DNA from: an uncultured Pseudomonadales bacterium
Lineage (GTDB): Bacteria; Patescibacteriota; Microgenomatia; UBA1400; PJMF01
Assembly: GCA_964521215.1 (NCBI GenBank)
Contig: CAZFRD010000002.1
Location: forward strand, 10,798-74,797
Reading direction: 5' to 3'
Length of the DNA stretch: 64,000 nucleotides
Shown here: positions 31,890 through 56,956 of the stretch, one piece after another
Position numbering within the stretch: the stretch's first letter is position 1
Layout of the letters: each line of letters opens with the position of its first letter
Notes under the pieces: model-generated
Seen by the model: only the letters and a program-made list of their open reading frames with translations
The model's database searches: none
Told to the model about the DNA's origin: nothing
Translations under genes and position numbers: made by a program

Positions 31890-31899
31890 AAAGTCATTA

Positions 31900-32389: not shown

Positions 32390-32412
32390 ATACTATCAAG
32401 ATAGTAATTTTA

Positions 32413-32439: not shown

Positions 32440-32441
32440 GT

Positions 32442-32489
32442 AGTAGTACCAATGTCTGCTTCGACAAGCTCAGCCTGACATTGGTACTA
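32442..32489. repeat. Long hairpin (14-bp perfect stem, 20-nt loop)
   Basis: GTAGTACCAATGTC ... GACATTGGTACTAC, located immediately after the terminator. Confidence 0.6.
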
Positions 32490-32495
32490 CACTAG

Positions 32496-32645: not shown

Positions 32646-33107
32646 GTGACCCCACCATGTAGTATACTTACCAGTATCATGAATTCGCTCAGGCATCGTT
32701 TCGTCATCCCGCCGTTACTCATCACGTTTTTGATTTTCAGCTTAATTCTTCCCCCTCAGGCCCAAGCCCAAACCGTCGAATGGTCTGGCGTTTGCATGGC
32801 TGGCTCGTCTGGCGGGGTCCCCACTATTCAGGGTCTTGAGTGCTTAATCGCCAATGTCTTTACCGTTATTATTACCCTTATCGGTCTGGGTGGGTTTGTG
32901 ATGTTTATCATCGGTGCATTCTTATGGATGACCGCCGGTTCTAACCCCAAAAACATCGATTCAGCCAAAAAAACTTTCACCTACGCCGTGCTCGGTATGG
33001 TCTTAGCTCTCAGCGCCTTTATTATCATTAACTTGATTGCCGATTTTACCGGCGTGAGTGTAATTAAGACTTTTAGAATTCCAACTTCTTCAACAGACTG
33101 GAATTAA
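32646..33107 (+). CDS. VirB2/TrbC-like pilin paralog 10 (GTG start)
   Basis: Signal peptide ...PPQAQAQ and 2 Cys, then IGAFLWMTAGSNPKNIDSAKKTFTYAVLGMVLAL. Confidence 0.5.
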   Translation: MTPPCSILTSIMNSLRHRFVIPPLLITFLIFSLILPPQAQAQTVEWSGVCMAGSSGGVPTIQGLECLIANVFTVIITLIGLGGFVMFIIGAFLWMTAGSNPKNIDSAKKTFTYAVLGMVLALSAFIIINLIADFTGVSVIKTFRIPTSSTDWN

Positions 33108-36980: not shown

Positions 36981-37013
36981 TTGACTTTGGCATCTCAACC
37001 TTTTTAAAAATCG

Positions 37014-37874: not shown

Positions 37875-37995
37875 ATCACTCCTTTTTCAAATGAACATTA
37901 ATATGCTAGGGCAGGGAAACAACCTCATCATATCACCATCTCTGACTATCAAACAAGCACAAATTCACTCGATTGCTCATCCGAAGATTAATCTA

Positions 37996-38001
37996 TATAA
38001 T
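37996..38001 (+). promoter_or_regulatory. -10 hexamer TATAAT 10 nt upstream of the ATG at 38012
   Basis: atcTATATAATagacaccgctATG. Confidence 0.4.
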
Positions 38002-38011
38002 AGACACCGCT

Positions 38012-39760: not shown

Positions 39761-39880
39761 TACTATAATTCTTGCACAATCCGCACAAGTTTTCTATTTT
39801 CTAATAACTTAACTACCAAGTAAGAAATTAACGCTTTCCAATCGTTCGAACCATCAACGTGAGTAATCTCAAATTTACTC

Positions 39881-42800
39881 TTATATATCAAACAGCTCTT
39901 TTCTTGATCTTTCAGACGCATTTAGAAGCGACTCTTCGATGAGTCTCTGCATCTTATCAATTTCCTTATTGATCTTCTTAGAATGTTCGCCTGTAATGAA
40001 TCCCGCTTTCACTGCAACTCGTAAAATATCCCTTACCTGACTTCTTTTCAATGCAACAGAAAGCTCTGCTACCTGAAAGTTGTGATGAATTAAGCCAAGA
40101 AGGTACATATATTGAAAATCAAACTGTATTTCTTTGGCCTTTAAGTTTGCCTCTTTCGCTAATTTACTTAAGTCGTCTGCCAACTTAGCGTTCCCACTCG
40201 CCCTAGCACTCTTTGCGCGTTCTCCCAATACAACCGCTTCATTCATTTGGTCCCTCAAACCATAAATAAACGGGTGCAAATAGGTAAGTGTATTGGTCAA
40301 TCTTTGATATGTCGACACCTGACTATATTCGCTTGAATTGAGTCCCGTTTTGATTAGTTCTCCCTTGATAAAATGAGCGGTGTTTTTCATTTGCCTGTAC
40401 CACGTTGCCAACGCATCTTCTTCAATATTGTCCCATGGCATATTCTCTACCATAAGCTCTCCCTGCGCATTCCTATATGACATAAAGTCAATAATGTTGC
40501 CTTTTGCATCCAAGTTAGTCGTCATCTTTCTTTTGTACTCAACCCCATCTTTGTTGACGGTGTATACCGTACCTTCATAACAATGATGAAAGAATCCAGG
40601 AAACAAATCCCACCTCGTATCTAATCGATCTCTTTTGCCAGGAGGTAAAACATAAATTACCGGCTTCGCGTGACCAGCAACTCCCCGCTGATCATTGTAA
40701 TCAAAATATCCTGTCAGAGTAATTTGTGGACCTGATTCAGCATCTTTGCCTTTGTATTTCCTTCTAAATTCAGAAAAGTGGATCACCTCTCGAACCTGAT
40801 CCTTAATTACCGCTGCATTTAAGATATCTAACTCACTTGCGCGAAAAAGCGATCTATACAGCCTATAGGCAATCATTGCGGAGGCGGGGTCGGTTTGACT
40901 TGTAACAAACTTTATCACCCTGTCTCTATCTGCTGTAAGCGTAGAACTATCAACATCTGGCAGCGCTGGTTCTTGACCGGTCATAATTCTATCCATAATT
41001 CTCCACGCTGCACCAACTTTCTTGTGACGAAATAAGTGACCGAGTTGCGAACTTCTAAGATCAACCTCGTTTTGCCGAATTGTTTCAATCATTATGTCCT
41101 GGGTACTTTCAACCATTCTATAAACATCATTAAGTTCTTTTCGGGCGCTGATCATCGTTGAAATATAGTCAACTTCTGCCTGAGCAATTTTGCCTTGAGC
41201 AACCAAACTAGATAACTTGTCCCTCATTGCAATCATTGCGTTGTATTCACCTACGTTAATTGTGTCTTTAAAGCCGGCATAAGTTTCCTCTATCTTTAGA
41301 ATTTTTGCTTCAAACCACTCTCTGCTCACAACCTCTGGCTGCTCTTTACTTCTTCTAATGCACTGATCCAAGTGGCGAGTGGCCTCACCATAGTTGGTGT
41401 TTAGACCTGAAATAGCTGATCCAACTGATTTACTTTGTGGAAATTTTTTTGAATTATCCAATAAATTCTGACTTATTACAAGATTGTGTGCATCTGTTAG
41501 TCTTAATTTAAACCCAGGATTTGCTAGGGTGCCACTTTCTAACATTGCGGTGTCATAACAGGTAGCCCCAGTTGTTCCACAGTGTGGTGCAATATTTTTC
41601 GCTATATCGATTGCCCTTACTTCCCTAATTATTTTTGTTAAAGCAATTATTTCTGGCTGCTTTTCCCACTCTTCTTTACCAGCGGTATCAATTCTTTCCT
41701 TTAATAATGCGTCAGCTTTTTGTTTTCGCTTTAGCAATTCTAATCTCGCCTTCTCAATCTGAGGATTTGGCGATGGATTTTCAATCAAATGTGCAATAGA
41801 ACTACTTCGAGCTTCTAAGCCCTGTGATAGAATTACGGCATTGGCATAAGATTTCGTTGTCACCAATGAGTTACCACCCGTATCTATAATACTATCAATG
41901 AACACAGCTAGTTGATTCACATCAGTTTTCCACTTGGTAAATTCAAGTACTTGACCGGTCTCCAACTTTATTTGTTTCAGCTCATCAAGACACTTTTGTG
42001 CTGGAATCCAATACTTCTGAGACAAATAGTCCTCGTAAATTTTTCCAGAAACTTTACTTGCCAATAGTGTTTTATTACTATCAAGCTGTGTCTCAATTTG
42101 CGAGATATGTAAGAAATTAGGAGAACCTAAGGAAATTGCCTGTCTGGCTTGCTCGGTGATTACTCTAAGCATTTGAAGGCTTGGGGTTGTTTTTTCCAAA
42201 TTTGACTTCCACTGCTCGAAAACTCTAGTTACTAAACCAAGCTCTAACTTATCTAGTCGACTACCGACATGATCTTTAAGTTCTTCGGCACTCAATCTTT
42301 CTTCATTTATGGTACTTCCAGATAATACGCGAATGGCTCTCTCAAATGAAACTCTTGTATTACGAATAACTTCGAGAGCATTGTTACCAGTATATTCAGG
42401 CAGCGGTATGGTTGGATCAAAATTGGTGTCTACTAGTTTTTTTTCTAGATCATCGATTGATCGCTGGACCCCAGAAATAATCGTATCTAACCCATTCTCT
42501 TTCGCACTGGGAATAACTAGTTCTTGTAATCGACCTATGGCCTTTTGAATTCGCTTAAGTCTAGATCCAGCAATATCTGACCAAGAGTTCTTGAGTCGAG
42601 TAGCCTCAAGATGCGCGTCTTTGTCTGAAAATGCTTGGGCTACCAACAACTCTAATGCTGATTCGATTTGTTCAGCTTCTTCAACTAGGATTTCTAGTTC
42701 ATTTTGTGTACTCGGCAAAGTCATCGAATCCTGGATCCACTTTCTTACTAACATGTCTGCTGCTATTATTTTCTCTTCAATTAGATTGGGGGCTAATTCC

Positions 42801-43093
42801 AGCGCAACCCGGTCATTAACTTGAACGACTTCTTCAGGTTCAATTTCATCTTGAGTTGCGTGACTTTTTTGGTAATCAGATTGAGTAATACCAAATTTTT
42901 CAAGCAGCACTATTTTAAAAGATTCTGGAATATTTTTCGATTTATCGAGCCCACGAAGCATCTCGATAAGTTCATTTCTGAGCTTTTCCACTGGCTCAGT
43001 ATCTAATGATTTTGTTGCACGCACTAAGGCTTGCGAAAATTCTGCCAGCGAATACACACTACCACCTGATATCTCTCCTCTTGGTTCAGTCAT
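39881..43093 (-). CDS. Large soluble protein of unknown function (1070 aa)
   Basis: Long alpha-helical, charged sequence with no TM segment, Walker motif or HUH/relaxase motif recognised. It is transcribed opposite to the surrounding T4SS genes. Confidence 0.4.
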   Translation of the reverse strand: MTEPRGEISGGSVYSLAEFSQALVRATKSLDTEPVEKLRNELIEMLRGLDKSKNIPESFKIVLLEKFGITQSDYQKSHATQDEIEPEEVVQVNDRVALELAPNLIEEKIIAADMLVRKWIQDSMTLPSTQNELEILVEEAEQIESALELLVAQAFSDKDAHLEATRLKNSWSDIAGSRLKRIQKAIGRLQELVIPSAKENGLDTIISGVQRSIDDLEKKLVDTNFDPTIPLPEYTGNNALEVIRNTRVSFERAIRVLSGSTINEERLSAEELKDHVGSRLDKLELGLVTRVFEQWKSNLEKTTPSLQMLRVITEQARQAISLGSPNFLHISQIETQLDSNKTLLASKVSGKIYEDYLSQKYWIPAQKCLDELKQIKLETGQVLEFTKWKTDVNQLAVFIDSIIDTGGNSLVTTKSYANAVILSQGLEARSSSIAHLIENPSPNPQIEKARLELLKRKQKADALLKERIDTAGKEEWEKQPEIIALTKIIREVRAIDIAKNIAPHCGTTGATCYDTAMLESGTLANPGFKLRLTDAHNLVISQNLLDNSKKFPQSKSVGSAISGLNTNYGEATRHLDQCIRRSKEQPEVVSREWFEAKILKIEETYAGFKDTINVGEYNAMIAMRDKLSSLVAQGKIAQAEVDYISTMISARKELNDVYRMVESTQDIMIETIRQNEVDLRSSQLGHLFRHKKVGAAWRIMDRIMTGQEPALPDVDSSTLTADRDRVIKFVTSQTDPASAMIAYRLYRSLFRASELDILNAAVIKDQVREVIHFSEFRRKYKGKDAESGPQITLTGYFDYNDQRGVAGHAKPVIYVLPPGKRDRLDTRWDLFPGFFHHCYEGTVYTVNKDGVEYKRKMTTNLDAKGNIIDFMSYRNAQGELMVENMPWDNIEEDALATWYRQMKNTAHFIKGELIKTGLNSSEYSQVSTYQRLTNTLTYLHPFIYGLRDQMNEAVVLGERAKSARASGNAKLADDLSKLAKEANLKAKEIQFDFQYMYLLGLIHHNFQVAELSVALKRSQVRDILRVAVKAGFITGEHSKKINKEIDKMQRLIEESLLNASERSRKELFDI

Positions 43094-43172
43094 TTACAAT
43101 ATTATATCAAGAAATGGCAAGAGCTAACAGACCTCACTTGTTGAATTGATTGTTATGATGTAGTCTGAATAC

Positions 43173-44228
43173 ATGAGTGAAAATGAGTACAACCCCGAAA
43201 ACGATGCTAGTGCTGGTTTCACCTCAGCGATGGAGGCTGGCAATGGAGCTGCAACAAAAACGGTGCCCGAAGTTGGTGATGGTCAAGCACAATTGAACGC
43301 AACGAACTCAGGCACGATTCAAGAAGATTCGACCCAAGAGTCAATAAGCATTAACGCCACACTTACAGAACAAATGCCAGCTTACCTCAATGCCCTAGAG
43401 GAACAGCTCGAAATTGGCGAAGATGTCTGGAACTATGAAAAAGCAGATGAATTAATTAAGCACATTGCCCCTAATAACGAAGTTCGTGAAGAAATACGAC
43501 GAAACCACCCCTCACTAGAAGAGAAATTGCTTGTTCTAGAGGAACAAAACGAAAAGGCTAGGCTTAAGAGACAAAATACATTACTATCCGAGCTAGCTAT
43601 GGAGGAGGAATTATCCCAAGCGGTTCAAGGCATAGACCTTGAAAGCAGTGGAGTAGATCAAGTACTGGTTGATGATTTGAAACCTGTTGAAAACGAAAAA
43701 ATATTTATCGATCTGGATGAAGATGGGAACGAAGGGGATGCGACCGGTACAATTAGGACGGAGCGAGAGGAGCATTCAATTGGTTCAAAAGCATTATTTG
43801 TGTTGTTGGTTCTGTATGATATTACCCAAGGTGGTCAGAGCTTGCGTGTAGCAGCAAGAACGGGTCAAGAACCTTTATTAGAGTTGATAGGGATCAATCC
43901 AGATAGGGCTAAAAGAATTATAGAAAAATCAAGAGCTCAAGAAAAACTCTTGTTCTCGCTATCTCCTGTTCGGCTTAAGGATTTCTTTGAAACAAAAATA
44001 AAAAGAGGTTACCGACAAGAAATCGTAACCTTTTTAGCTGGAATTTCTAGGGAGACTCGCGTCGATTTACTTAGTGGACGAGAGGTTCTTCCGAGAGGAC
44101 TAGGGCGATACTCTCATCTTCTTGATCAGGCTCAAATTCAACAGATCCTTGGTGCTTTAAAACCAGAAGATATTGACAGACTAGATCTGAATGACGTAGT
44201 CGCCCAACGACAACCAAATACAACATAG
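43173..44228 (+). CDS. Acidic hypothetical protein (351 aa)
   Basis: Glu/Asp-rich ORF transcribed divergently from the 1070-aa gene. No recognisable motif. Confidence 0.35.
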   Translation: MSENEYNPENDASAGFTSAMEAGNGAATKTVPEVGDGQAQLNATNSGTIQEDSTQESISINATLTEQMPAYLNALEEQLEIGEDVWNYEKADELIKHIAPNNEVREEIRRNHPSLEEKLLVLEEQNEKARLKRQNTLLSELAMEEELSQAVQGIDLESSGVDQVLVDDLKPVENEKIFIDLDEDGNEGDATGTIRTEREEHSIGSKALFVLLVLYDITQGGQSLRVAARTGQEPLLELIGINPDRAKRIIEKSRAQEKLLFSLSPVRLKDFFETKIKRGYRQEIVTFLAGISRETRVDLLSGREVLPRGLGRYSHLLDQAQIQQILGALKPEDIDRLDLNDVVAQRQPNTT

Positions 44229-44329
44229 TTTTTGTAGAAATTGCTCGTCCCAATTTAATATTGAATAGTGCAATTATTATCTGACTCGCTATACTAGAAA
44301 CTAGTATTAATCCAAATTAGGTTCTGTCT

Positions 44330-44824
44330 ATGGGAGATATCTTAACACCAACGCCAGATGATGTACTCAGAGAGGGACCCAAGTTCAGAAACGACAGAGT
44401 TACTTCTGTAGCCTATAAGCTAAATCGAGGTGCTGAAGTCACACTAAGTGAGCTCACCACCTTTTTAGAATCTCTTGCGCCTCCAAGCAACGAAGGTTTG
44501 CCATATTATGTCAAGAAAGTTGCAGATGGTGTTGCGAAAGAGAGAAAGATTAAGTTATTCCCCATATTATGGGGTGACTCATCAAAAATCATGGTTGGCT
44601 ATATACCAAATTCAGAACAACCCAACCAAGACAGCTTCTTTGACTTAAATAGCGTTAAGTTGGTTTGTGAGTTCGAACTTGGGAATGCTGGAGACTTCAA
44701 CCAAAAATCGCCATCTACTGAAGAGATTAGGCAAAAAATTGAGGCGTTTTTTGAAAAGCAAGATATGCATCGATCAATTAGAGACACCATTGATGCAATT
44801 CAAAAACAATTTACTGGTTTGTAG
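44330..44824 (+). CDS. Hypothetical protein (164 aa)
   Basis: ORF with an AGGT-type spacing before the ATG. No motif recognised. Confidence 0.35.
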   Translation: MGDILTPTPDDVLREGPKFRNDRVTSVAYKLNRGAEVTLSELTTFLESLAPPSNEGLPYYVKKVADGVAKERKIKLFPILWGDSSKIMVGYIPNSEQPNQDSFFDLNSVKLVCEFELGNAGDFNQKSPSTEEIRQKIEAFFEKQDMHRSIRDTIDAIQKQFTGL

Positions 44825-44915: not shown

Positions 44916-47900
44916 ATGGCGGATGATTCCTCTGAAAAAACTATTAGCCAACCAAAGAGGTTGGTCTCCGGCTTTGCCCTTAATAACCTTGCTCACAGAC
45001 AGTGGCTGGCGGTTTTTTTGGCTGGACTGCAAGAGGCGCTATTTAAAGAAAACAAACTAGTAGAAAACCTCAAAATACCAGTTTGGTTTGGTTCTAAACC
45101 CTCGTGGGTCATCTTAACCACCACCGACGCAAAGAGAGATCTCGACGATCCCGCTCGAGACGAGAAGTCTTTATTTCCCACCGACATCGTTTACCTAATA
45201 GTCGATCTGGCCATAAGACTTGATGTTCCCCGCAAAGAGATTGAATATTATCTATCGAACGCCACTAGAGATGGGGACCTGTTCATAGAATCCACTGTTT
45301 TAGACACTCAAACTATCACTGAACTGAAAACACTTGTTGACGAAATCGGTAAGAAATTAGAGTTGGTAACAAAACAAGAGGACAAACAGAAAGAAGAGGA
45401 GGCTCCACCGACATTGGAAAAAGGTCCAGCTGAAGCTGTCAAACCTGTTGCCCCACCCCAAAAGGGGGTTACAACCGCAGGGGTTAAACCCACCCCAACC
45501 GAAGGTGGAGATCAAGCTGAAACACAAGTTGAACTACCCGGAGCAGTCGCGGCCTCGACAGTCATAAGCGCTCAAGCCGCCGCCCGAACCAAGAGATATG
45601 AGTTTGCCTGGATCTACAACCATTTTTTGTTCGACCTGACAGGCAAATATGGCATTGAGCCAAGTGATGAGTTGAGGGCACAACTCCAAGGAATTGTTTC
45701 AGAGCATCTGGGCACTATTTCTCCAGATGAAATGGCTAGTTTTTTTGCCAATCCCACTGCGCGTTTAAGAGCGATTCAAGCTATTTACCAAAAACTTAAC
45801 CTTCAAGATGACTTTAAGCAAAAGCTCAGTAATCAATATGACACTTACCTGCTAACTGCCACTGATTCACAAAAACAACAATTCCTACAAAGCAACAACT
45901 TCGCAAATGGCGGGTTGAAGATAATCGAAAACTTACAGAATTTTCAATTAGAAAATAATCAGTCGGGAGTGATCAAACAAGCCGAGACAACGCTGGCTGG
46001 TCTCACTGGTACGGCCATTGACGGCCCAACGGCTTTAAACTTTGAACGAGCCATCGAGGCATTAGCTCTCACTATGGGTTCCAAAACCGTGGCAACAGAC
46101 TTGGGACTGAGTTACCCAGAAAATAAGGCAGACCTGGAGACCTTCATTAAGAAGCTCAGCGCCAAACAGATAGCCCAGATCTTTTTCCCCAACCCCAATA
46201 AGCCAGATGAAGTAGATGACAAGATACTGTTAGCTATTGAGCAAAATCTTAGCTCAATTCAAAATCTACTTACCGCTACTCTGCTGGCAACTTCGCTGGA
46301 AAAACTAGCCACCGCACCGAATGAGTTAAAAAAACTTGTCGGCATAGCAGTCTTTACTGACGATGATCTTAAAGGCGACCAGACCGCAATCGAATCTGCA
46401 ATCGTCAGTGTGCGAACGCTTACCGGCGCGATGCCGGTTACTGGCAAAGACGACGACGTAACTCCTGCAATTACCACCAGCCACACCCAGCAGCTAATGG
46501 AACAATACCAAAAGCGGGTGCAAAAAATTTGGGCGTCTTTGGAAGAAGAGTCTCAACTGCGGGCTTACTACGCCCTATTTGGACTAACTGAGGATCCTGC
46601 CAACCACCAAGTTTTGTTGGATAAAGTCCAGCACCTTAGAATACCGGGTAGCAACAAATTACCCTGGAATCCTAATTTGATCAACTTGATCAATTGGGAA
46701 GATTTCTTAAGAAAAGATTACAAAGAAAACCAAAGGGTCGCGGCTCTTCGCGCCAAAGCCGCCGAGGGCTTTACCAAAAACCTCAGTCAGCTCCAACTTG
46801 AACAACTGCAAATCAGCCACTTACTTAACGAACTAGAAAACGGCGTGGTCTATGCCGAGGGCGTTGCTCACAAAATCAACCAAAACGAAGATATTGTTGA
46901 TCTTGAATTCCGCTCGGTACTAAACACACTAGACTTAGTCACCACTCGTTTGGACTTACTTAAAAGTCGAAAATTGGCTGAAGATGATGAAAAATTCAAT
47001 GTTGCATTAAACGAAAGAGTTGACAACCTTTCCGGTCGCTGTACGACAGTTTTATCCACCCTAGCTGGCTATAACCGCTTGGCGGGCCTACTGCAGAATT
47101 ATCAAAATCTCACCTTGGTTGAAACCTATCAACTATCGCTTGAGTACGAAATTCCCGAAATTTTACTCTACCAAGTTGGGGATATTACTCAACCGGGTTT
47201 TAATCAGCAAGCTGAGTTGTCCGACAGAGTCACAGCCGATAACTTACTTGATGACCCTTCCTCAATGTCGCTCGGCCAACTCAATGCTGCTGCGAGAAAG
47301 AGCAACGAGCTACATCCTAGTCGACTCGATCAAATTAACCTTGCCAACCAAAACAATCAGGCGCTTAATGATCTAAAAAACATAGTTGGTGGAGTGGGAG
47401 AAATAGCTGCTCAGTCAAAAGGCAACTGGGTAGCTGCGGCCGGTCTGGGTATTAAGAAATACCTCACCGACAAGGAATTTCGCCAAAGCATCAACCGGAC
47501 AGCTAAAAGATACGCAAAAAAAATAGCCTTGTTAGGTGGAATTGTTGTTGGAGGTGGAGTAGCAATCGGATTGCTTCTTAGACATTTGCTAGGAATGGCT
47601 GGACAGTGGGGCGGGATGCTTGGAGGAGCGTTGGCTGGCGGCACCGTTGGAGCGGCACTTGGACCACTTGGAGTAATATTGGGAGCGGGAATTGGGGGAT
47701 ATTTAGGATATAACGTTGGAGCCAAAGCCGCCGCCCTCAATGCTTCATCTGGGGCGGAATTGCTATCACCCAGTAGTTCAGCCGCCCAACCGATTTTCCA
47801 AGAAGAAGTCCTTTCGTCCTCACCCGCCACTTTTCAATCTGCCACTAGTGGCACTGGCATGGAAGCTACCACCCCAGCTGCCGCCACAGCTTCCCCCGTT

Positions 47901-49046
47901 GCTTCTTCTGCCGCCACCTCCGTTGCCACCCAAGCTCCTTTTCTTGGCAGTCTGGCTGGCATCCCAGTCTTAGCCTTAATCCCCGCCCTATCAATGCTGT
48001 CGCTGGCTGGGATCACGCTTTACACTTTGTTTGTAATTTTTTCCGCTTTCCTCGCCCCTCTACCCGTGGGCAACCTCGGTGGTGTCAACACCACTAAATC
48101 TGAATATGCGGTGCTGACAAAACTGGCATCACCGGGGTCACTATCAAACAACACGACCGCCAACGTCAACTACAAAATTATCTTGCAACCTAGAAGGAAT
48201 TATTCGCTCAAAGTAACCGCTGTGACCGATAGCGCCAACACTGGCTTCAACTTTCAATCTAATCGCTCAGGCAAAATTAATCCCCAAGTTTCACCACCCG
48301 CCAGCTTGCTCAATCCTCGTATTTCTTTGGCAGACTTTTCTCCCGATTTTTTTGGTCAGACCCAACTAAAAGAATATAGTGTCACCTTCTCTGGGGGCAA
48401 GGACGTGCTGGTTAGTAACGTGATAAAAATTACCTACGATGTCCAGGATGCTCAAGGCAATTCCATTGCCACTAACCAAACGATTGACGCCATCGCCAAT
48501 GTGTCCATTGGCGACCATGGCGTATTTTGCTGGCCCACAACGGGAGAAATAATCCAGTTGCCAGGGGGCAGTTTTTCACACAATAACTCTGACGCATTTG
48601 ATATTTCAGCTCCAAAAACCAACAAGGTCTACACCCCATTTGCTGGCTGGGCTCAAAAGGGCGATATGGGTAATAGTGATTATGGCAAATACGTAGTAGT
48701 TGACTCATATGTGCAAGGAAGGTGGATCAGAATTATTTACGCTCACTTAAGTAGCGCTGCGGTGGGTACTCCCACAGCCCACACGTGGCTTAATATAGCC
48801 TACAACCATGACGACAACCAAGCGAACAACATTGGTCAACAAGTTGGCGCTGGTCAACTAATTGGCGCAGTCGGCTCCACTGGCAACTCTACAGGACCAC
48901 ACCTTCATTATGAGCTCATATATATTAACGGCAGAAGACATACTTTCGGAAGTGGATTCAGCCTTATTAACTTAGTGCCTCCAAGACCTGCGGGGGGCAA
49001 ATACAGAGTAGGAGATTATGTTAAAACCTGTTATCCATTTAATTAA
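44916..49046 (+). CDS. Giant bitopic protein with C-terminal peptidase M23 (LytM) domain; PrgK/VirB1-like peptidoglycan hydrolase candidate
   Basis: 1376 aa. The first ~870 aa are helical and soluble. Two Gly-rich hydrophobic segments follow (IALLGGIVVGGGVAIGLLL...GALAGGTVGAALGPLGVILGAGIGGYLGY), then an Ala/Ser/Thr-rich linker. The C-terminus carries the M23 motifs (GDHGVF..., AVGSTGNSTGPHLHYELI). A TATAAT lies 7 nt before the ATG. Confidence 0.75.
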   Translation: MADDSSEKTISQPKRLVSGFALNNLAHRQWLAVFLAGLQEALFKENKLVENLKIPVWFGSKPSWVILTTTDAKRDLDDPARDEKSLFPTDIVYLIVDLAIRLDVPRKEIEYYLSNATRDGDLFIESTVLDTQTITELKTLVDEIGKKLELVTKQEDKQKEEEAPPTLEKGPAEAVKPVAPPQKGVTTAGVKPTPTEGGDQAETQVELPGAVAASTVISAQAAARTKRYEFAWIYNHFLFDLTGKYGIEPSDELRAQLQGIVSEHLGTISPDEMASFFANPTARLRAIQAIYQKLNLQDDFKQKLSNQYDTYLLTATDSQKQQFLQSNNFANGGLKIIENLQNFQLENNQSGVIKQAETTLAGLTGTAIDGPTALNFERAIEALALTMGSKTVATDLGLSYPENKADLETFIKKLSAKQIAQIFFPNPNKPDEVDDKILLAIEQNLSSIQNLLTATLLATSLEKLATAPNELKKLVGIAVFTDDDLKGDQTAIESAIVSVRTLTGAMPVTGKDDDVTPAITTSHTQQLMEQYQKRVQKIWASLEEESQLRAYYALFGLTEDPANHQVLLDKVQHLRIPGSNKLPWNPNLINLINWEDFLRKDYKENQRVAALRAKAAEGFTKNLSQLQLEQLQISHLLNELENGVVYAEGVAHKINQNEDIVDLEFRSVLNTLDLVTTRLDLLKSRKLAEDDEKFNVALNERVDNLSGRCTTVLSTLAGYNRLAGLLQNYQNLTLVETYQLSLEYEIPEILLYQVGDITQPGFNQQAELSDRVTADNLLDDPSSMSLGQLNAAARKSNELHPSRLDQINLANQNNQALNDLKNIVGGVGEIAAQSKGNWVAAAGLGIKKYLTDKEFRQSINRTAKRYAKKIALLGGIVVGGGVAIGLLLRHLLGMAGQWGGMLGGALAGGTVGAALGPLGVILGAGIGGYLGYNVGAKAAALNASSGAELLSPSSSAAQPIFQEEVLSSSPATFQSATSGTGMEATTPAAATASPVASSAATSVATQAPFLGSLAGIPVLALIPALSMLSLAGITLYTLFVIFSAFLAPLPVGNLGGVNTTKSEYAVLTKLASPGSLSNNTTANVNYKIILQPRRNYSLKVTAVTDSANTGFNFQSNRSGKINPQVSPPASLLNPRISLADFSPDFFGQTQLKEYSVTFSGGKDVLVSNVIKITYDVQDAQGNSIATNQTIDAIANVSIGDHGVFCWPTTGEIIQLPGGSFSHNNSDAFDISAPKTNKVYTPFAGWAQKGDMGNSDYGKYVVVDSYVQGRWIRIIYAHLSSAAVGTPTAHTWLNIAYNHDDNQANNIGQQVGAGQLIGAVGSTGNSTGPHLHYELIYINGRRHTFGSGFSLINLVPPRPAGGKYRVGDYVKTCYPFN

Positions 49047-49998
49047 CCAGCGCTCAAAAAAATCTTGGGTATTCTCTATCCTGCTTTTACTCGTGATGAT
49101 GGGCGTGGTGTTTACCCTCCTCACACCCAGCCAACAACCAACATCTGACCAAAATAAAAATTACGATGACACCTACTCAAGCTTTTCCAATGTCGGCTAC
49201 GTTGGGGGCACTTTGGTCATACCCGAAAATCTACCAGTGTACCAACAAGCAACTTGGGAAGATCCATTGCTACTCAAAAACCAATTTGTTGCCCAGTTCA
49301 ACCTGGCGGGTGATCCCGAAGATCCCACGCTTTGGCAAAACGAAAATTTGACGATCACGCAAATAGATGAGCCAACTCGCTATGTTTTGGAATATCTGCC
49401 AGACGAAGAGGAAGCAAGCAACCCAGCTCAAGTTCAACCCGCTAGTTACCCCGATCCCACCCAAATTGCCAACAGTTGGATTAATCAACATTTCACCACT
49501 TATTCACTCACGGCCGTAAGTTCGGAAGTTGAGTATCTAACCGGCGAGTATGAACTGGTAAAAACATCTAAATCGCTCACCACTTTGGTCAAAATTCCCT
49601 ACGCCCAAACTGCGGGCAACTACCCAGTCCAAACCGAATTAACCGATAGTTACCCGCTAATTCTTTGGGTCGACACACAGAAAAACTTGGTTAAAAAAGT
49701 AGTTTTTTACCCCACCTTGGTAACTTTCAAATCAGGAGAGGAACTGCCCACTATTAGTGTGGATGAGGCGGTAAAAAACATTAACTCGGAAAAGGAAGCG
49801 CGCATCATCAAATCTGATTTTACGCCCATTGAACCATATTCACTCGAACAAATTAAAAGTGGCAACCTAACCAGTGGCAAAATCGTTTACCGAGTGGCTT
49901 CCAACCAGTTGTTAAAACCCTTTTACTTCTTTAAAGGCAATTTAACCGACAGCAACAACATCGGATTTGAAGCTGAGATTGTGGTTCCCGCTATCTAA
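49018..49998 (+). CDS. Bitopic membrane protein (N-terminal signal anchor plus about 280-aa extracytoplasmic domain); VirB8/TcpC-like candidate by position
   Basis: RSKKSWVFSILLLLVMMGVVFTLLT anchor followed by a soluble domain. It sits between the hydrolase and the PrgI-like gene, as ConB/TcpC-type genes do in monoderm T4SS loci. This is a positional inference only. Confidence 0.35.
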   Translation: MLKPVIHLINQRSKKSWVFSILLLLVMMGVVFTLLTPSQQPTSDQNKNYDDTYSSFSNVGYVGGTLVIPENLPVYQQATWEDPLLLKNQFVAQFNLAGDPEDPTLWQNENLTITQIDEPTRYVLEYLPDEEEASNPAQVQPASYPDPTQIANSWINQHFTTYSLTAVSSEVEYLTGEYELVKTSKSLTTLVKIPYAQTAGNYPVQTELTDSYPLILWVDTQKNLVKKVVFYPTLVTFKSGEELPTISVDEAVKNINSEKEARIIKSDFTPIEPYSLEQIKSGNLTSGKIVYRVASNQLLKPFYFFKGNLTDSNNIGFEAEIVVPAI

Positions 49999-50052: not shown

Positions 50053-51255
50053 ATGAAAGAACATCCGATTCCCCAAGATATTACTAACTACCGATTTCAC
50101 ATCGTGGGCAGTATGACCCTAAAGCAGTTTTTGGAAATTGGGGCGGGCATTGTGTTCGCCGCCATCTTGTACAAAACTGGTCTCCCCGTTTTCATTAAGT
50201 GGCCCGCCATCGTCATTTCGGCTCTCACGGGTGCGGCCGCCGCTTTCTTACCCATCGAGGAGCGGCCGCTAGACCACTGGATCACCACCTACATCCGAGT
50301 TTTGTACAAACCCACCCAATTTTTCTGGAAACGGGAACCAAAGATACCCGCGCTCTTTACCTTCACCGCCAACACCGCCAACAACAACGCCGAATCGGAA
50401 TTTGACCTCTCTCCAATTAAACGTGAAAGAATCAAAGAATATATGGCTTCGCTTCACCAACCAAGCTCTAAGGACAACCAATATGACACCGCCCAACAAG
50501 TAAAAATTGGCGAAATCATCGCCTCTTTTGCCGAAGTTGAACCCACTCACAAACCTACCATCAAAATCAATGTAGAAAAACCCGACCTCCAACCAAGGGT
50601 GAGGGCGCTAAGAAAGCCAGAAGATCACCCTGCGCCCAAACCCACTAGCGTTGCCCCAGAAGTGATTGTGCCGTTTTTATATCCCGAACCAGAAGCTCAG
50701 CCCGCCCCAATAACTCAAGAGATTTTACCCCAATCCGAATCTCGAGTTGGGGTGGCTACTCAACTTAAACCAGATCAGGTGGCCTACTCTATTCGCGTTC
50801 AAGACACACCCCTGGTTCAATTTGCGGAAGAAAAGGAAGAAGAGGAAATGCGAGAGAAATCACCCATCAAACTCCTCACTAACGAAGAACTCCAACAACA
50901 ACTCCAACCCACCCCCTCAACTAAAAAAGACGTTGTGGCCGCTAGTAGCTCCGCTACTTTCAACACCAACCTACCATTTCCCAATGTCCCCAGCGAACCG
51001 AACAAACTGGTTGGTATGGTGCTAACCCAAAATGGAGAATTAATTCCCGGCGCAGTTGTGGAGGTGCATAATGCTCATGGATCAATTGAACGAGCGGTCA
51101 AGTCCAATGCTTTGGGTCAATTTTTTATTACTACCCCACTAACCGCTGGTAAATACGTAATAAAAGTCGAGGCAGATGGCTATCAATTCCCCACCGCCGA
51201 ACTAGTGGTCAACAACTCGGTTTTGCAACCTCTCGAGTTGAGAGCCACCACCTAA
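50053..51255 (+). CDS. PrgI/TcpE-family (VirB3-like) membrane protein with long C-terminal extension ending in a carboxypeptidase-regulatory-like beta-sandwich domain
   Basis: The N-terminus IPQDITNYRFHIVGSMTLKQFLEIGAGIVFAAILY...FLPIEERPLDHWI matches the PrgI-family pattern, with two TM helices. A Pro/Glu-rich linker follows. The C-terminal segment GMVLTQNGELIPGAVVEVHN...LGQFFITTPLTAGKYVIKVEADGYQ resembles a CarboxypepD_reg domain. Confidence 0.55.
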   Translation: MKEHPIPQDITNYRFHIVGSMTLKQFLEIGAGIVFAAILYKTGLPVFIKWPAIVISALTGAAAAFLPIEERPLDHWITTYIRVLYKPTQFFWKREPKIPALFTFTANTANNNAESEFDLSPIKRERIKEYMASLHQPSSKDNQYDTAQQVKIGEIIASFAEVEPTHKPTIKINVEKPDLQPRVRALRKPEDHPAPKPTSVAPEVIVPFLYPEPEAQPAPITQEILPQSESRVGVATQLKPDQVAYSIRVQDTPLVQFAEEKEEEEMREKSPIKLLTNEELQQQLQPTPSTKKDVVAASSSATFNTNLPFPNVPSEPNKLVGMVLTQNGELIPGAVVEVHNAHGSIERAVKSNALGQFFITTPLTAGKYVIKVEADGYQFPTAELVVNNSVLQPLELRATT

Positions 51256-51306: not shown

Positions 51307-52179
51307 ATGCCCACCACCCAATCTACGACTACCACCCAACAATTTTTGGATATTTTCGACATTACCAACGATGTGTTAATTCTAAAAAATGGCACCTCAG
51401 CCATCATTCTCACAGTCGATGCCATGAACTTTGGTTTGCTGGCGGAAGAAGAACAAGACGCCATTATGTATGCCTATGCAGGGTTGCTCAATTCCCTCAA
51501 CTATCCCATTCAAATCGTGGTGCAGTCAAAAACCAAAGATGTCACTGGTTACCTCCGAAAGCTTTCGGAACAAGAAGAGAAAACCCAAGATGAAACCATG
51601 CGCAAACGCATTGCTCAATACCGCCTGTTTGTGACCAACCTCATTCATGAGCGCAACGTTTTAGACAAAAGATTTTACGTAGTCATTCCCGCCACCTCAA
51701 TAGAGATGGGTTTTTTGGGCGCCCAAACTTTTATTCCCGGCAAAGATGATTTTAATATTAGCGACGTCGAGCGCAGCGTGATTATCGAAAAAGCCACCAA
51801 CCTGCTCGAGCCCAAGCGCGACCACCTAATTAGTCAATTTGCGAGAATTGGGCTTTTTTCTCGACAACTCAACACCCAAGAAATTATTCAGTTGTTCTAC
51901 GTGAACTACAACCCCGAATCGACCGAGGGTCAAGAAATAGCCGAAAGCTCATCCTATACTAGCGGTCTCGTCCACGCAGACATGGGCACTGCTTACGGTG
52001 GTTCCGAGCCCATTCAAACTGAAACTACCGCGCCCCCAGTCCCAGACAGCTTACCAAACACAACTACTCAAGTTCCTTCACCTCAGCTAAACATACTCAA
52101 CCAACCAGTGGTTAAAACAGCCGGCGTCACCGCAGAACAAACCGTCTGGCCCCAACCAACTAACGAAAGTTATCAATAA
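51307..52179 (+). CDS. VirB4 N-terminal-domain-like protein (possible 5' fragment of a split virB4)
   Basis: ILKNGTSAIILTVDAMNFGLLAEEEQDAIMYAYAGLLNSLNYPIQIVVQSK resembles the extreme N-terminal region of monoderm VirB4/TrsE/ConE ATPases. The ORF stops 1 nt before the virB4 ATG in a different frame. Confidence 0.45.
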   Translation: MPTTQSTTTTQQFLDIFDITNDVLILKNGTSAIILTVDAMNFGLLAEEEQDAIMYAYAGLLNSLNYPIQIVVQSKTKDVTGYLRKLSEQEEKTQDETMRKRIAQYRLFVTNLIHERNVLDKRFYVVIPATSIEMGFLGAQTFIPGKDDFNISDVERSVIIEKATNLLEPKRDHLISQFARIGLFSRQLNTQEIIQLFYVNYNPESTEGQEIAESSSYTSGLVHADMGTAYGGSEPIQTETTAPPVPDSLPNTTTQVPSPQLNILNQPVVKTAGVTAEQTVWPQPTNESYQ

Positions 52180-52180
52180 T

Positions 52181-54079
52181 ATGCCCAAGCTTTCATCCCT
52201 CCTACCATTTGGCAAGAAAAAAACTCCCTCCGAGCAACCGCTGACCAAAGAACAACAGGAGTTAGAAAAAATCAAAAATTTTAGCCGAGGCTTAGTCACT
52301 ATCCAAGACATTATTGCCCCAGAAGCAATAGAAATCGATTTTACTTTTCAAAAAATCAACTCAACCTATACCCGCACGCTGTTTGTCGCTGGCTATCCCC
52401 GAAGCGTCCCCGCTAATTGGCTATCACCCCTGATTAACTACCCCCATCGCATCAGTACATCAATGTTTATCTACCCCGTAGATTCTTCAGAAATTCTCGA
52501 TAACTTAAAACGAAAAATTACAGAAATGGAAGCGGAAATTCAATCAGACTTAAGAGCGGGAAAAATCAGCAACATTAATACCGAGGTGAAGCTGGAAGAC
52601 GCCCGCTACCTAAGAGAGGATTTGGCCAAAGGCTCAGAACGCTTTTTCCAATTTGGTTTATATGTCACCATTACCGCAATTTCCAAAGAGGAATTAGACA
52701 GAGTCACCAAGGCAATCCAGTCATCGCTTGGGTCACTACTTATTGTGTCCAAAAAAGCCACCCTCCAGATGGATGAAGGCTTTAAAACCACCCTCCCCAT
52801 GGGCGTAGACAAACTATTGGTGACGAGAAACATGGACACCACTTCTCTGGCCACCACCTTTCCCTTCACCTCCAGCGAGTTGACTCAAGAAAACGGCATT
52901 ATGTATGGTATCAACGAACACAATGATTCATTAGTCATTTTTGACCGATTTTCAATGGAAAATGCCAATATGTTAATTTTCGCTAAATCTGGTGCTGGTA
53001 AATCATTTACCGTCAAACTTGAGGTGTTACGCCAACTGATGTTTGGCACCGAGGCTATTATTCTTGATCCCGAACATGAATATGAGGAAATGTGTCGGGC
53101 AGTCAATGGCGAATACATCAACTTCACCTTCGGTTCTCAGGCTAAAATTAATCCGTTTGACCTATCCTCTCTCTATGAAGAGGGTGAAAACGAGTTGGGC
53201 CAAAAAATTATTTCGCTCCACGGCCTGCTCAAAGTGATGTTGGGCGCCATGACCCCCCAACAAGATGCGTTGTTGGACAGAGCCTTGGTAGCCGCTTATA
53301 AAGCCAAAGGCATTACTCCAGATCCTTCAACCCAGACCAATGAACCACCACTAATGGAGGACTTATATAAAGCCCTCATTGGTATGGAAAACAAAGAGGC
53401 AGACGATATTAGCGCTCGCCTGGAGAAATTTATCACTGGTTCATTTAGAGGCATTTTTGACCAAGGCTCAAACATTGATATCACTAACCCTCTCACAGTT
53501 TTTTCGGTCAAGGAAATGGAGGAAGGACTTCGTCCGATAGCGATGTATATTATCCTCGACTTTATTTGGACGAGAGTGAAAAAAAATCTCAAAAAAAGGA
53601 TCCTAATAATTGATGAGGCCTGGTACTTCATGAAGCACCCGGACTCCGCTTCTTTTATTCATTCAATGGTCAAAAGAGCTCGTAAGTACTTCTTGGGCAT
53701 TACCACTATTACTCAAGACGTTGAGGATTTTTTACACAACGACTTTGGCAAAGCCATTGTGTCTAATGCTTCAATTCAATTTTTGATGAAACAATCAACC
53801 GCCTCTATTCCCGTTTTGGCGGAAACATTCTACTTATCCCAAGGCGAGCGCCAGCTCTTAGTGACCGCCGATATTGGAGAGGGCATCTTCTTTGCTGGCC
53901 AAAACCACGTAGCTCTGAGGGTGGTGGCTAGCCCAGAGGAACACTCCCTAATTACCACCAACCCGGAGGAGCTATTACAAAAACGAGAGCAGCAAGTCGC
54001 CAGCGTGGTCAACAACGCTGTGTTTACGGGCTCTACCATTGCTGATTACGCTCCTCCCCCTCAAAATACTCAGGGATGA
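52181..54079 (+). CDS. virB4: VirB4/TrsE/PrgJ-family T4SS ATPase
   Basis: The N-terminal region IAPEAIEIDFTFQKINSTYTRTLFVAGYPRSVPANWLSPL is a monoderm VirB4 hallmark. Walker A FAKSGAGKSF, Walker B ILIIDEAWYFM, and C-terminal motifs. 632 aa. Confidence 0.8.
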   Translation: MPKLSSLLPFGKKKTPSEQPLTKEQQELEKIKNFSRGLVTIQDIIAPEAIEIDFTFQKINSTYTRTLFVAGYPRSVPANWLSPLINYPHRISTSMFIYPVDSSEILDNLKRKITEMEAEIQSDLRAGKISNINTEVKLEDARYLREDLAKGSERFFQFGLYVTITAISKEELDRVTKAIQSSLGSLLIVSKKATLQMDEGFKTTLPMGVDKLLVTRNMDTTSLATTFPFTSSELTQENGIMYGINEHNDSLVIFDRFSMENANMLIFAKSGAGKSFTVKLEVLRQLMFGTEAIILDPEHEYEEMCRAVNGEYINFTFGSQAKINPFDLSSLYEEGENELGQKIISLHGLLKVMLGAMTPQQDALLDRALVAAYKAKGITPDPSTQTNEPPLMEDLYKALIGMENKEADDISARLEKFITGSFRGIFDQGSNIDITNPLTVFSVKEMEEGLRPIAMYIILDFIWTRVKKNLKKRILIIDEAWYFMKHPDSASFIHSMVKRARKYFLGITTITQDVEDFLHNDFGKAIVSNASIQFLMKQSTASIPVLAETFYLSQGERQLLVTADIGEGIFFAGQNHVALRVVASPEEHSLITTNPEELLQKREQQVASVVNNAVFTGSTIADYAPPPQNTQG

Positions 54080-54160
54080 GGCTATTTATCAGTGTATTTT
54101 TCCCCTTGCAGAGTGTGGGAAACTTTGTGTATAACTTCCAAGTATATTTGGGGTGGAAAT

Positions 54161-55627
54161 ATGTCCTTACAATCTTTTTCCAAAGACGAGGTGTCTTTAG
54201 TTTGGAACAAAACCTGTTCCAAACTTGAGGGGCAACTCTCGCCGGCGGTGTATAACACCTGGATTTTAGCCAATCCCCTCACCCAAGTGGTGGATCAAAA
54301 TTCCACCCTCATTGCTACCATCACTAGTCCGACCGCTTTTCACGCCACCAACTTAAAAAGAAATCTCAACCAACAACTCACTACCGCTCTTTCCCAAGTC
54401 GTTGGCAAAGAAGTGATTGTCCAGTACGAGGTGGGTAGCGCTCAAGAAAGCCAGGGGGCTGAGCGCAACTCTTGGTCGACAATAAAAACCAACGTGGGAG
54501 GTAACTCATTCAACCCGGGGGACACCAAGTCTCCGTTGGTGGCCGATTTGTTCTCTGATACCACCATTAAACAGTCGGAGGTAGATCGATCGCAGTTTAG
54601 AGCCAAACAAATCGGCCTCAACCCCGACTTTATTTTTGCTTCATTCGCCGTTTCTTCGAGTAACGAAATGGCTCATGCGGCCGCCATCGCTGTCTCCAAA
54701 AACCCCGGCGGCTCATATAACCCACTTTTCCTCTATGGGTCGGTGGGTGTGGGCAAAACCCACCTCATGCACGCCATCGGCAACAATCTCGTGGCCCAAA
54801 ATCCCAACGTCAATTTGCTTTACTGTACGGGCGAAGAGTTTACCAATGAAATCGTCCACGCTATTCAAACCAAGCAGGCGGCTAATTTTAAAAAACGTTT
54901 TCGCACCGCCCAAGTTTTACTCATCGACGACATTCAGTTTATTGCGGGCAAAAACACGGTTCAAGAAGAGTTTTTTCACACTTTTAACGCTCTAATTCAA
55001 CAACGTAGTCAAGTGATTCTCGCCTCCGATAGACCACCACAGAATATTTCTCTCCTCGAAGACAGATTGCGCTCTCGCTTTGAAGCCGGACTAATGATAG
55101 ACATTGGTCAACCCACCTTCGAACTAAGAACTGCCATCTTACTGCTCAAGGCAGAACAAGCTCACCTCAACTTTCCCATCGAGTTAGCCAAACAAGTTGC
55201 TGAAGTGATTACTAGCGCCCGAAAAATTGAGGGTTTCATCACCAATATTCGCTCAGAGATCGAGTTAAAACACAGAGAATTAAATGAGGAATTAATTCTC
55301 TCCCTCATTAATCAAGGTGGTGGTGACAAAACCCCCAAATTACTCATCAATCCGTCCGACGTAATCAAGGAGGTAGCTCATTTTTATCAACTCAAACAGT
55401 CTGAGATAAAGGGCAAGCAAAGAATTAAACATCTGGTGGATGCCCGCCATTTAGCCATGTACATTATGAAGGAGGACCTTCAACTTTCTTTGGTGGAAAT
55501 TGGTCGCTGGTTCGCTGGTAGAGATCATACAAGTGTGATCCATGCGGTGCGCAAGGTGACTAAAGACTTGGCGTTTAATTCCAGGCTTCAGCAAGAATTG
55601 CAACAGATAAAAAGTAGGTTGATTTAA
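54161..55627 (+). CDS. dnaA: Chromosomal replication initiator protein DnaA
   Basis: Walker A GSVGVGKTHLMHAIGN, Walker B LLIDDIQFIAGK, sensor and box VII regions, and the C-terminal DNA-binding signature DHTSVIHAVRKV. Start chosen at the ATG at 54161 (GGTGGAAAT-ATG) rather than the GTG at 54092. Confidence 0.9.
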   Translation: MSLQSFSKDEVSLVWNKTCSKLEGQLSPAVYNTWILANPLTQVVDQNSTLIATITSPTAFHATNLKRNLNQQLTTALSQVVGKEVIVQYEVGSAQESQGAERNSWSTIKTNVGGNSFNPGDTKSPLVADLFSDTTIKQSEVDRSQFRAKQIGLNPDFIFASFAVSSSNEMAHAAAIAVSKNPGGSYNPLFLYGSVGVGKTHLMHAIGNNLVAQNPNVNLLYCTGEEFTNEIVHAIQTKQAANFKKRFRTAQVLLIDDIQFIAGKNTVQEEFFHTFNALIQQRSQVILASDRPPQNISLLEDRLRSRFEAGLMIDIGQPTFELRTAILLLKAEQAHLNFPIELAKQVAEVITSARKIEGFITNIRSEIELKHRELNEELILSLINQGGGDKTPKLLINPSDVIKEVAHFYQLKQSEIKGKQRIKHLVDARHLAMYIMKEDLQLSLVEIGRWFAGRDHTSVIHAVRKVTKDLAFNSRLQQELQQIKSRLI

Positions 55628-55849: not shown

Positions 55850-56956
55850 ATGAAACTATCAGTTAAACAGACTTCGCTTCAAAAAGTTTTAAGAGTTGTG
55901 CAAAAAAGTGTTTCCACTAAACCACAACTCCCCATCCTTTCCAGCATTTTACTCAAAGCGGAAGGCAAATCACTCTTTCTTTATTCCACCGATCTTTACA
56001 CTGGAGTTGCGGTGGAAGTAGAGGCTGAGGTAGAACGGGAAGGCATTTTTGCCGTACCCGGTAAGTATTTCACTCAGGTGGTTAACTCACTTTCCGCACC
56101 AACCATTAGTCTTGAAGTTAAAGACAACAACTTACTAGTGCAAGCAAAAGATTCCCTTACTAAGCTTGTTGGTCTCAATGCGGAAGATTTTCCAGCCTTT
56201 CCAGTAATTGATGCGACCAAAAAAGTCATCCCCGTCAAGGAGCTTCAAGAGTCATTAATGAGCGTCGCTTTTAGTGCCTCATCAGACCAGACTAGGCCAA
56301 CTTTAACCGGCATTTTATTTTCATTTGAAACCTCCAAGACTCATCTCATCGCCACCGACGGATTTAGGCTTTCTGTTCGCACTATTGACGTTCCCATCGA
56401 AAAAGAAGGCTCAATTTTAGTCCCCGCCAAAGCCCTGGTGGACATTTTTAAAACCTCGGAAGAGGAAAAAGTTACTTCGGTCTCATTTGCTTTATCTACC
56501 GAATTAAAACAGGTGAAATTCGAAGTTGGGTCGTTTGCGTTTTATATTAGGCTTCTTGATGGAGAGTATCCTCCATATAAAAAAATTATCCCCTCGCAAA
56601 TTACAACGACCGTCAGTTGTAACAAAAATGATTTGGAAGAAAAACTGCATCAAGCGCTAATTTTTAATCAGGACAATTCTTTTATCACTCAGTTTAGAAT
56701 TAAAACCGCCGGCGTGACTCTCTTTTCTACCTCTCCCAGCGCCGGCGAAAACACCTCGGAACTAGCCGGAGCTACCGTGAAAGGAGAGGAAGTTACTATT
56801 GCATTTAATACCCGCTATTTACTAGATTTCATTAAGGTGGTGGAGGATGATTGGATTGAGATTGAGATCGCCGAAAGCCTCAAGCCGGCGAGACTAAAAG
56901 TTCAGTCATTACCAGACTTCCAATATGTAGTGATGCCCTTCAGGGTAACCTCATAA
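55850..56956 (+). CDS. dnaN: DNA polymerase III beta subunit (sliding clamp)
   Basis: 368-aa three-domain beta-clamp-like sequence located directly after dnaA and the oriC spacer. Confidence 0.85.
   Translation: MKLSVKQTSLQKVLRVVQKSVSTKPQLPILSSILLKAEGKSLFLYSTDLYTGVAVEVEAEVEREGIFAVPGKYFTQVVNSLSAPTISLEVKDNNLLVQAKDSLTKLVGLNAEDFPAFPVIDATKKVIPVKELQESLMSVAFSASSDQTRPTLTGILFSFETSKTHLIATDGFRLSVRTIDVPIEKEGSILVPAKALVDIFKTSEEEKVTSVSFALSTELKQVKFEVGSFAFYIRLLDGEYPPYKKIIPSQITTTVSCNKNDLEEKLHQALIFNQDNSFITQFRIKTAGVTLFSTSPSAGENTSELAGATVKGEEVTIAFNTRYLLDFIKVVEDDWIEIEIAESLKPARLKVQSLPDFQYVVMPFRVTS

Follow-up and report, generated by a model that had tools for sequence, protein, structure and literature searches.

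Is virB4 in this genome broken by a change of frame, or is it carried naturally as two genes? The question is raised by a window of 64,000 nucleotides (nt; the whole stretch of DNA that was analysed, contig CAZFRD010000002.1, positions 10,798 to 74,797, forward strand), in which two adjacent open reading frames (ORFs) together resemble VirB4, an ATPase of type IV secretion systems (T4SSs). The original prediction, made without database searches, described a virB4 apparently split by a frame change at about 52179 and offered as explanations an authentic split VirB4, a frameshift (pseudogene or programmed) or an assembly error. Its ORF coordinates (51307-52179 and 52181-54079) and the 1-nt separation of the two ORFs in different frames are exactly as claimed. 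We put at roughly 85% the probability that ORF1 and ORF2 are a natural, conserved two-gene VirB4, lying in a T4SS cluster on the chromosome of a Microgenomatia/Woesebacteria-like member of the Patescibacteria. The two-gene arrangement as such is already known, from Patescibacteria and from staphylococcal plasmids. The features on which the argument turns are as follows (aa, amino acids).

51307-52179, + strand: ORF1, TrsD-like gene, 290 aa, ATG start.
51307-51981, + strand: conserved core of ORF1 (residues 1-225), matching the first ~205 residues of full-length monoderm VirB4.
51982-52176, + strand: low-complexity, T/P/Q-rich tail of ORF1 (residues 226-290), hypervariable among homologues.
52177-52179, + strand: stop codon of ORF1, TAA.
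52177-52183, + strand: ORF1/ORF2 junction, TAA-T-ATG (stop, single base, start).
52181-54079, + strand: ORF2, VirB4 ATPase without the first N-terminal module, 632 aa, ATG start.
52181-52222, + strand: N-terminal peptide of ORF2, MPKLSSLLPFGKKK, conserved, LPFGKKK type.
52988-53005, + strand: Walker A, SGAGKS (ORF2 residues 270-275), located by string search inside the P-loop_TraG/AAA_10 match.
53603-53623, + strand: Walker B region, LIIDEAW (ORF2 residues 475-481), conserved in the alignment with P0216, a fused VirB4 described below.

Both peptides quoted in the original prediction are present, at ORF1 residues 28-53 (NGTSAIILTVDAMNFGLLAEEEQDAI) and ORF2 residues 62-81 (TYTRTLFVAGYPRSVPANWL); one letter required correction, D having been written where ORF1 has N (the first N of NGTSAIILTVDAMNFGLLAEEEQDAI).

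Collinearity of the two genes with single-chain VirB4

ORF2 matched the NCBIfam profile conju_CD1110 (NF045971) with 389.5 bits (E 3e-116), reaching the curated cut-off of 325. Only positions 177-734 of the 752 in this profile were covered; the N-terminal positions 1-176 are not on the same polypeptide. On the profile VirB4_plasma the match ran from position 284 to 890. Pfam matches were obtained to P-loop_TraG (E 4e-25) and AAA_10 (E 1e-14), and residues 232-592 matched the VirB4 C-terminal domain in PDB entry 4AG5 (E 4e-48). After its N-terminal peptide, ORF2 continues with the VirB4 N-terminal domain from its second half onward and then with the C-terminal ATPase domain, which is RecA-like; the earlier claim that it continues the VirB4 N-domain and holds the ATPase was borne out by the CD1110 and P-loop_TraG matches and the Walker motifs. 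Since the 4AG5 match and the Walker motifs both fall inside ORF2, the fission lies in the middle of the N-terminal domain and not between the N- and C-terminal domains.

ORF1 supplies the preceding segment. It matched VirB4_plasma (894 positions) at positions 104-239 (E 3e-9), and longer ORF1 homologues reach positions 99-286, so that the ORF1 and ORF2 pieces abut in profile coordinates. Together with 46% identity to residues 7-204 of the fused protein P0216, this match agrees with the original placement of ORF1 at the extreme N-terminus of monoderm VirB4.

P0216 (MEK7091100.1) is a fused VirB4 of 787 aa from a metagenome-assembled genome (MAG) of the Patescibacteria and covers conju_CD1110 positions 3-735. 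Its residues 7-204 were aligned to ORF1 residues 7-207 (E 4e-56) and its residues 213-774 to ORF2 residues 45-605 (64% identity); the second part abuts the first and the order is kept, which is the outcome of the collinearity check proposed in the original prediction. The protein is found at 787 aa on several independent contigs, its gene lying at 7477-9840 of locus L081 and 877-3240 of locus L082 in a cluster ordered PrgI, VirB4, M23 peptidase, 332-aa protein, dnaN, dnaA. The N-terminal LPFGKKK peptide of the ORF2 type has no counterpart in the fused protein. Judged from these alignments, ORF1 and ORF2 together are collinear with one VirB4 to a degree far beyond chance.

Fused forms are rare among the relatives of ORF1. 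Clustering at 50% left 1784 clusters; of their best 150 representatives, 149 were stand-alone proteins, P0216 being the sole fused form; the domain is N-terminal in nearly all. Clustering at 90% gave 1192 homologues, the best 120 of which are all stand-alone (224-497 aa) and come from Woesebacteria, Pacebacteria and Microgenomates MAGs, as do the nearest relatives. The core of the family is strongly conserved, with ~90 invariant columns among 26 sequences; the tails are hypervariable, with lengths between 0 and about 480 residues. When ORF1 was modelled with AlphaFold, the core had a predicted local distance difference test score (pLDDT) of about 70-89 and the tail was disordered. When this model was compared with the PDB, 14 of the top 15 matches were TrwK/VirB4 chains of R388, with probabilities up to 0.97.

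Family assignment of ORF1 was also sought in Pfam. Precomputed annotations assign PF26593 ('TraC-like') to P0001, which is identical to ORF1, to all 120 listed homologues and to the genes of the sister loci. A hmmscan of the local Pfam-A with ORF1 and with its core gave no match, PF26593 included, so this model may be absent from the local copy. Searched against PDB sequences, the ORF1 family profile returned only a low-complexity match to TBP.

The first ~205 residues of VirB4's N-terminal domain have their counterpart in the core of ORF1, which runs on into a disordered tail of variable sequence, and ORF2 makes up the remainder of the protein. We think it rather probable that the TrsD-like core packs non-covalently against the N-terminal half of ORF2 and so rebuilds the VirB4 N-terminal domain. 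The rebuilt complex would then form the usual ATPase assembly and power the same secretion machine as a single-chain VirB4. In the R388 structure the VirB4 N-terminal domain reportedly contacts VirB3 and the membrane. An AlphaFold model of P0216, of low confidence overall, has a low-confidence linker at residues 199-221, coinciding with the fission site, which fits a break between subdomains.

In the same model the two halves of the VirB4 N-terminal domain (residues 16-203 and 225-354, equivalent to the ORF1 core and to ORF2 residues about 55-190) show a similar predicted order of strands, helix, strand, helices, strand and helix. An ancient internal duplication of the domain was considered and is unsupported: comparison of the ORF1-core family with the ORF2 N-terminal family in hhalign gave a probability of 0.7%, which is not significant.

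The junction across orthologous loci

The junction reads ...CAA TAA T ATG CCC..., and ORF2 lies in the +1 frame relative to ORF1. As the original prediction had observed, the frame of ORF2 stays open upstream into the low-complexity tail of ORF1, for 30 codons from 52091. No other start codon occurs in this extension, and nothing conserved is recognisable in its translation. A homopolymer or slippery site was looked for at the junction and none was found. The 1-nt spacing probably couples translation of the two genes.

To place the junction in context, 80 loci from 80 species were retrieved and their gene anatomy was scripted. A VirB4 gene lies immediately downstream of the TrsD-like gene, and never in the same ORF, in 76 of the 80 loci. 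Three of the other four stop at a contig edge, leaving 77 evaluable, and the last (L060) has other genes downstream. Stop-to-ATG gaps in the 76 loci range from -20 to 576 nt (median 16), and all three relative frames are present (31, 20 and 25 loci). A single frameshift would be unable to fuse the two genes in 25 loci, and 14 loci with both genes in the same frame have at least two in-frame stops between them. Four independent assemblies of a sister lineage have exactly this TAATATG junction; they carry the same 290-aa and 632-aa genes, with ORF1 92% identical. L001 has it too, with ORF1 at 81% identity and differing flanking bases. In 68 of 70 ORF2 homologues (loci L001-L080) the gene's own ATG is followed by a peptide of the form MPxLxSLLPFGKKK (LPF/FxKK type, LPF-x-KKK).

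Could a recent frameshift leading to pseudogenisation, or an indel introduced by sequencing or assembly, have broken a single virB4 at about 52179? The two ORFs do lie 1 nt apart in different frames, with that of ORF2 open for 30 codons upstream, and fused 787-aa forms do exist in some Patescibacteria. However, the two genes are kept in 76 orthologous loci in every frame relation and at gaps of up to 576 nt, an identical junction is shared with independent sister assemblies and with a more distant relative, and the ATG and motif at the start of ORF2 are conserved. A fusion spanning the junction would moreover add about 110 non-homologous residues (ORF1 208-290 plus ORF2 1-44) where P0216 has 8, and the junction contains no homopolymer. 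We regard the chance of such a break as negligible. Programmed +1 frameshifting or recoding in the overlap at 52091-52179, giving some fused VirB4 besides the two separate proteins, is very improbable for similar reasons: an overlap of the frames is also present in 20 of the 76 loci, but the frame relation is not conserved, one third of the loci (25) could not be joined by a single shift, the 14 same-frame loci carry their stops, the translation of the overlap is not conserved, and no recognisable slippery or stimulatory element was seen. ORF2 has a conserved start of its own and, in about 40% of lineages, its own -10-like box. The comparative data on 76 loci, the separate ATG and motif, and the shared TAATATG thus lead us to reject the frameshift pseudogene, the programmed frameshift and the assembly error put forward in the original prediction. 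Its description of a gene split by a frame change also falls, the frame difference varying freely among loci with a conserved ORF2 start; the 1-nt spacing and the +1 offset are incidental features of a tight gene boundary. Its alternative of an authentic split VirB4 is the one upheld, by separate genes in 76 of 77 evaluable loci.

A further explanation accepts two genes but holds that ORF1, although descended from the VirB4 N-terminus, is now an independent accessory or regulatory factor, perhaps an adaptor acting through its tail and a C-terminal motif. The hypervariable tails, and an LPPLPEI-type end in 41 of 76 homologues, suggest some extra interaction, and L060 carries an orphan copy without virB4. 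Yet ORF2 lacks precisely the segment that ORF1 supplies, with neither overlap nor gap in profile coordinates; the two genes are adjacent in all but one evaluable locus; the core is under strong purifying selection, as its invariant columns indicate; and fused P0216 shows that both parts can function as one chain. We consider the accessory role unlikely. The original prediction had named, as the outcome that would speak against a split, orthologues encoding a separate 290-aa protein beside an intact VirB4 with its own N-domain. Half of this was found: the orthologues do encode a separate small protein, but the VirB4 downstream is without its own copy of the segment and starts at about CD1110 position 177. 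By comparison of the sequences, ORF1 and ORF2 are two separate genes, each with its own start and stop, which together hold every segment of a single-chain VirB4 and whose adjacency is under strong selection.

Several results weigh against a natural two-gene VirB4 of the TrsD kind. Against the NCBIfam TrsD/TraD profile NF041427, ORF1 matched positions 21-142 of 201 with only 19.6 bits (E 6.6e-4) and did not reach the curated cut-off of 200; TrsD of plasmid pSK41 itself scores 227.6 bits. Comparison of the ORF1 family with pSK41 TrsD in hhalign was likewise weak (probability 45%, E 2e-4, 167 collinear columns). With both scores weak, ORF1 may be an orthologue of plasmid TrsD or may have arisen by a fission of its own at the same site. 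The structural matches of the ORF1 model to TrwK have weak scores (template modelling (TM) score 0.29, E 6e-3), and the AlphaFold model of P0216, built from a shallow alignment, is too poor for an interface to be read from it (pLDDT 56.7, predicted TM score 0.30). Lastly, the orphan TrsD-like gene of L060 indicates that the small protein can exist uncoupled from virB4. ORF1 fits the description of TrsD/TraD as a small protein homologous to the N-terminal portion of VirB4, and we would describe it as TrsD-like in role and origin, yet, on account of its weak NF041427 match, as lying outside the NCBIfam TrsD/TraD subfamily.

A few individual loci deserve separate description. The orphan gene of L060 (5989-7203) encodes 404 aa and is followed by a gene for a 129-aa protein and by an apparent aminoacyl-tRNA synthetase gene. 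L058 and L061 belong to a single MAG, and the TrsD-like gene is therefore present twice in some genomes. In L002 (1986-2765), which belongs to the nearest relative in GTDB (94% identity, assembly coverage about 5x), the match to ORF1 breaks off at residue 199, beyond which its frames are not those of the window; the cause seems to be a genuine frameshift in that MAG or an assembly error due to low coverage.

For annotation, the consequence of a natural two-gene VirB4 is that virB4 should not carry a frameshift, pseudogene or misassembly flag in these genomes, and that the 'hypothetical protein' upstream should be named a TrsD-like N-terminal module of VirB4.

Terminal motifs and the surrounding cluster

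Two short sequence features recur at the boundary between the genes in other lineages. An LPPLPEI-type motif (in some cases A-E-I and one further residue) closes 41 of the 76 TrsD-like homologues after the variable tail, with examples across L003-L078 such as L008 at about 7230-7251 and L015 at about 7086-7107. ORF1 of the window (52150-52179) and its closest relatives do not have this motif, the C-terminus of ORF1 being ...NESYQ. In about 29 of 70 loci a TAnAAT hexamer, resembling a -10 box, begins at position -14 or -13 relative to the virB4 start codon; such a hexamer is present in 4.6% of random 40-nt windows. These boxes were found over the range L005-L074, 9-14 nt before the ATG (for example L007 at about 7328-7333), and the window has none. 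With this spacing, transcription would start on the ATG or right beside it, and an internal promoter giving leaderless virB4 mRNAs is suggested for those lineages. There virB4 seems to have a promoter of its own.

Fission might be other than neutral if these features were combined into a regulated docking system, in which the LPPLPEI-COOH tail and the LPFGKKK peptide would act as short linear motifs that control reassembly of the halves or recruit another T4SS part, while separate, leaderless expression of virB4 from the internal -10 box would let the stoichiometry of the halves be tuned. Taken as a whole this proposal is doubtful. ORF1 of the window is without the LPPLPEI end and the boundary is without the -10 box, so the window would at best represent a derived variant of such a system.

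The genes around the pair are those of a T4SS cluster, and were located as follows.

29543-33107, + strand: seven tandem VirB2-like T4SS pilin genes, about 18 kb upstream of virB4.
33156-44824, both strands: six ORFs of 1274, 286, 595, 1070, 351 and 164 aa, between the pilin array and the M23 gene.
44916-49046, + strand: M23 peptidase protein, 1376 aa, with Pfam Peptidase_M23 at the C-terminus (E 5e-15).
49018-49998, + strand: 326-aa protein with an N-terminal hydrophobic segment, a conserved cluster member.
50053-51255, + strand: PrgI/VirB3-like membrane protein, 400 aa, its gene immediately preceding the TrsD-like one.
54092-55627, + strand: dnaA, immediately downstream of ORF2.
55850-56956, + strand: dnaN, downstream of dnaA.

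The PrgI-like protein matched Pfam PrgI over residues 5-88 (E 1e-6, 29.5 bits, cut-off 27), and the gene order PrgI-like, ORF1, ORF2 is kept in the sister loci. The protein is unusually long, with a proline-rich linker and a C-terminal CarboxypepD_reg beta-sandwich (carboxypeptidase-regulatory-like, E 6.5e-10). All seven pilin genes matched Pfam T4SS_pilin (PF18895), five of them above the gathering score; each encoded protein has a signal peptide, two hydrophobic helices and a shared W-I-T-S-G-G-D...K...A-R motif. The six ORFs between the pilin array and the M23 gene gave no Pfam match at E 1e-3, and could include a divergent VirB6 or other T4SS parts.

The 1376-aa M23 protein, which has a glycine/alanine-rich hydrophobic region and is conserved in the sister loci, is probably the cell-wall hydrolase of the secretion system; M23 proteins are also encoded in the L081 and L084 clusters. 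Its gene overlaps the start of the 326-aa gene by 29 nt. The 326-aa protein gave no family match in Pfam or NCBIfam scans, and its gene occupies the same position in the sister loci, with a 332-aa gene following the M23 gene in L081. With dnaA and dnaN immediately downstream, the cluster sits at the replication origin region; the equivalents of these two genes in the sister loci carry Bac_DnaA and DNA_pol3_beta.

Comparison with described systems

The closest described arrangement is that of the Patescibacteria T4SS (Quinonero-Coronel et al. 2025, Microb Genom, PMC12102498). In the parts of that paper drawn on here, TrsD, remotely homologous to the N-terminus of VirB4, is named as the T4SS component of highest abundance in Patescibacteria; it usually adjoins virB4 and lies near dnaA, 1,664 of 2,272 TrsD homologues being associated with VirB4. 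According to the same parts, PrgI/VirB3 and VirB2-like pilin arrays accompany TrsD, the arrays being reported for Microgenomatia, and the T4SS cluster lies near dnaA/dnaN in Microgenomatia and Paceibacteria. All of these features are present in the window (a TrsD-like gene by virB4, PrgI/VirB3, a pilin array and dnaA/dnaN, in a chromosomal location and in Microgenomatia), and its arrangement is therefore an instance of something already described; against these parts of the paper no substantive difference was seen. They give no account of where exactly the fission falls, of the uncommon fused forms, of the LPPLPEI motif at the C-terminus or of the -10-like box ahead of virB4. In other literature, 'TrsD' is absent from the main text of Guglielmini 2014 (PMC4027160) and TrsD is not discussed in a 2025 FEMS review. 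The original prediction did not recognise the arrangement as one of the known TrsD/TrsE type.

In one cultured member of the Patescibacteria, the T4SS has been shown to be essential for epibiotic growth, and its TrsD homologue is likewise listed as essential (the ML1 homologue, Candidatus Southlakia epibionticum, PMC12102498). It is accordingly a reasonable structural question how a VirB4 divided midway through its N-terminal domain is assembled. The window is one more instance of the published pattern and adds nothing unique to that question.

The TrsD/TrsE type includes the staphylococcal plasmids pSK41/pGO1, and TraD/TraE of pIP501. In pSK41, trsD (227 aa) lies directly upstream of the VirB4-like trsE (672 aa) and downstream of the gene for the small membrane protein TrsC, an order which the PrgI-like gene, ORF1 and ORF2 of the window parallel. 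TrsE covers CD1110 positions 183-730 and VirB4_plasma from position 265; its starts are close to those of ORF2 (183 vs 177 on CD1110, 265 vs 284 on VirB4_plasma), which indicates the same truncation or fission point in both proteins. ORF2 and TrsE share 25% identity over 573 columns. ORF1 differs from pSK41 TrsD in that the similarity is distant and a low-complexity tail has been added. The pSK41/pGO1 systems are conjugative, with a relaxase and a coupling protein, whereas the window holds a chromosomal cluster at the origin region, in which a relaxase was not searched for.

The structure-level relatives are TrwK/VirB4 of R388 for the ORF1 model and the VirB4 of T. pseudethanolicus (4AG5) for ORF2. 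In comparison with single-chain monoderm VirB4 (CD1110, NF045971; Mbov_0397, NF045975), ORF1 and ORF2 taken together span the full profile in collinear order, and both Walker motifs are present. Unlike the single chain, the polypeptide of the window is divided in the middle of the N-terminal domain, at about profile position 177 of 752, with about 65 tail residues added to ORF1 and about 44 new N-terminal residues to ORF2.

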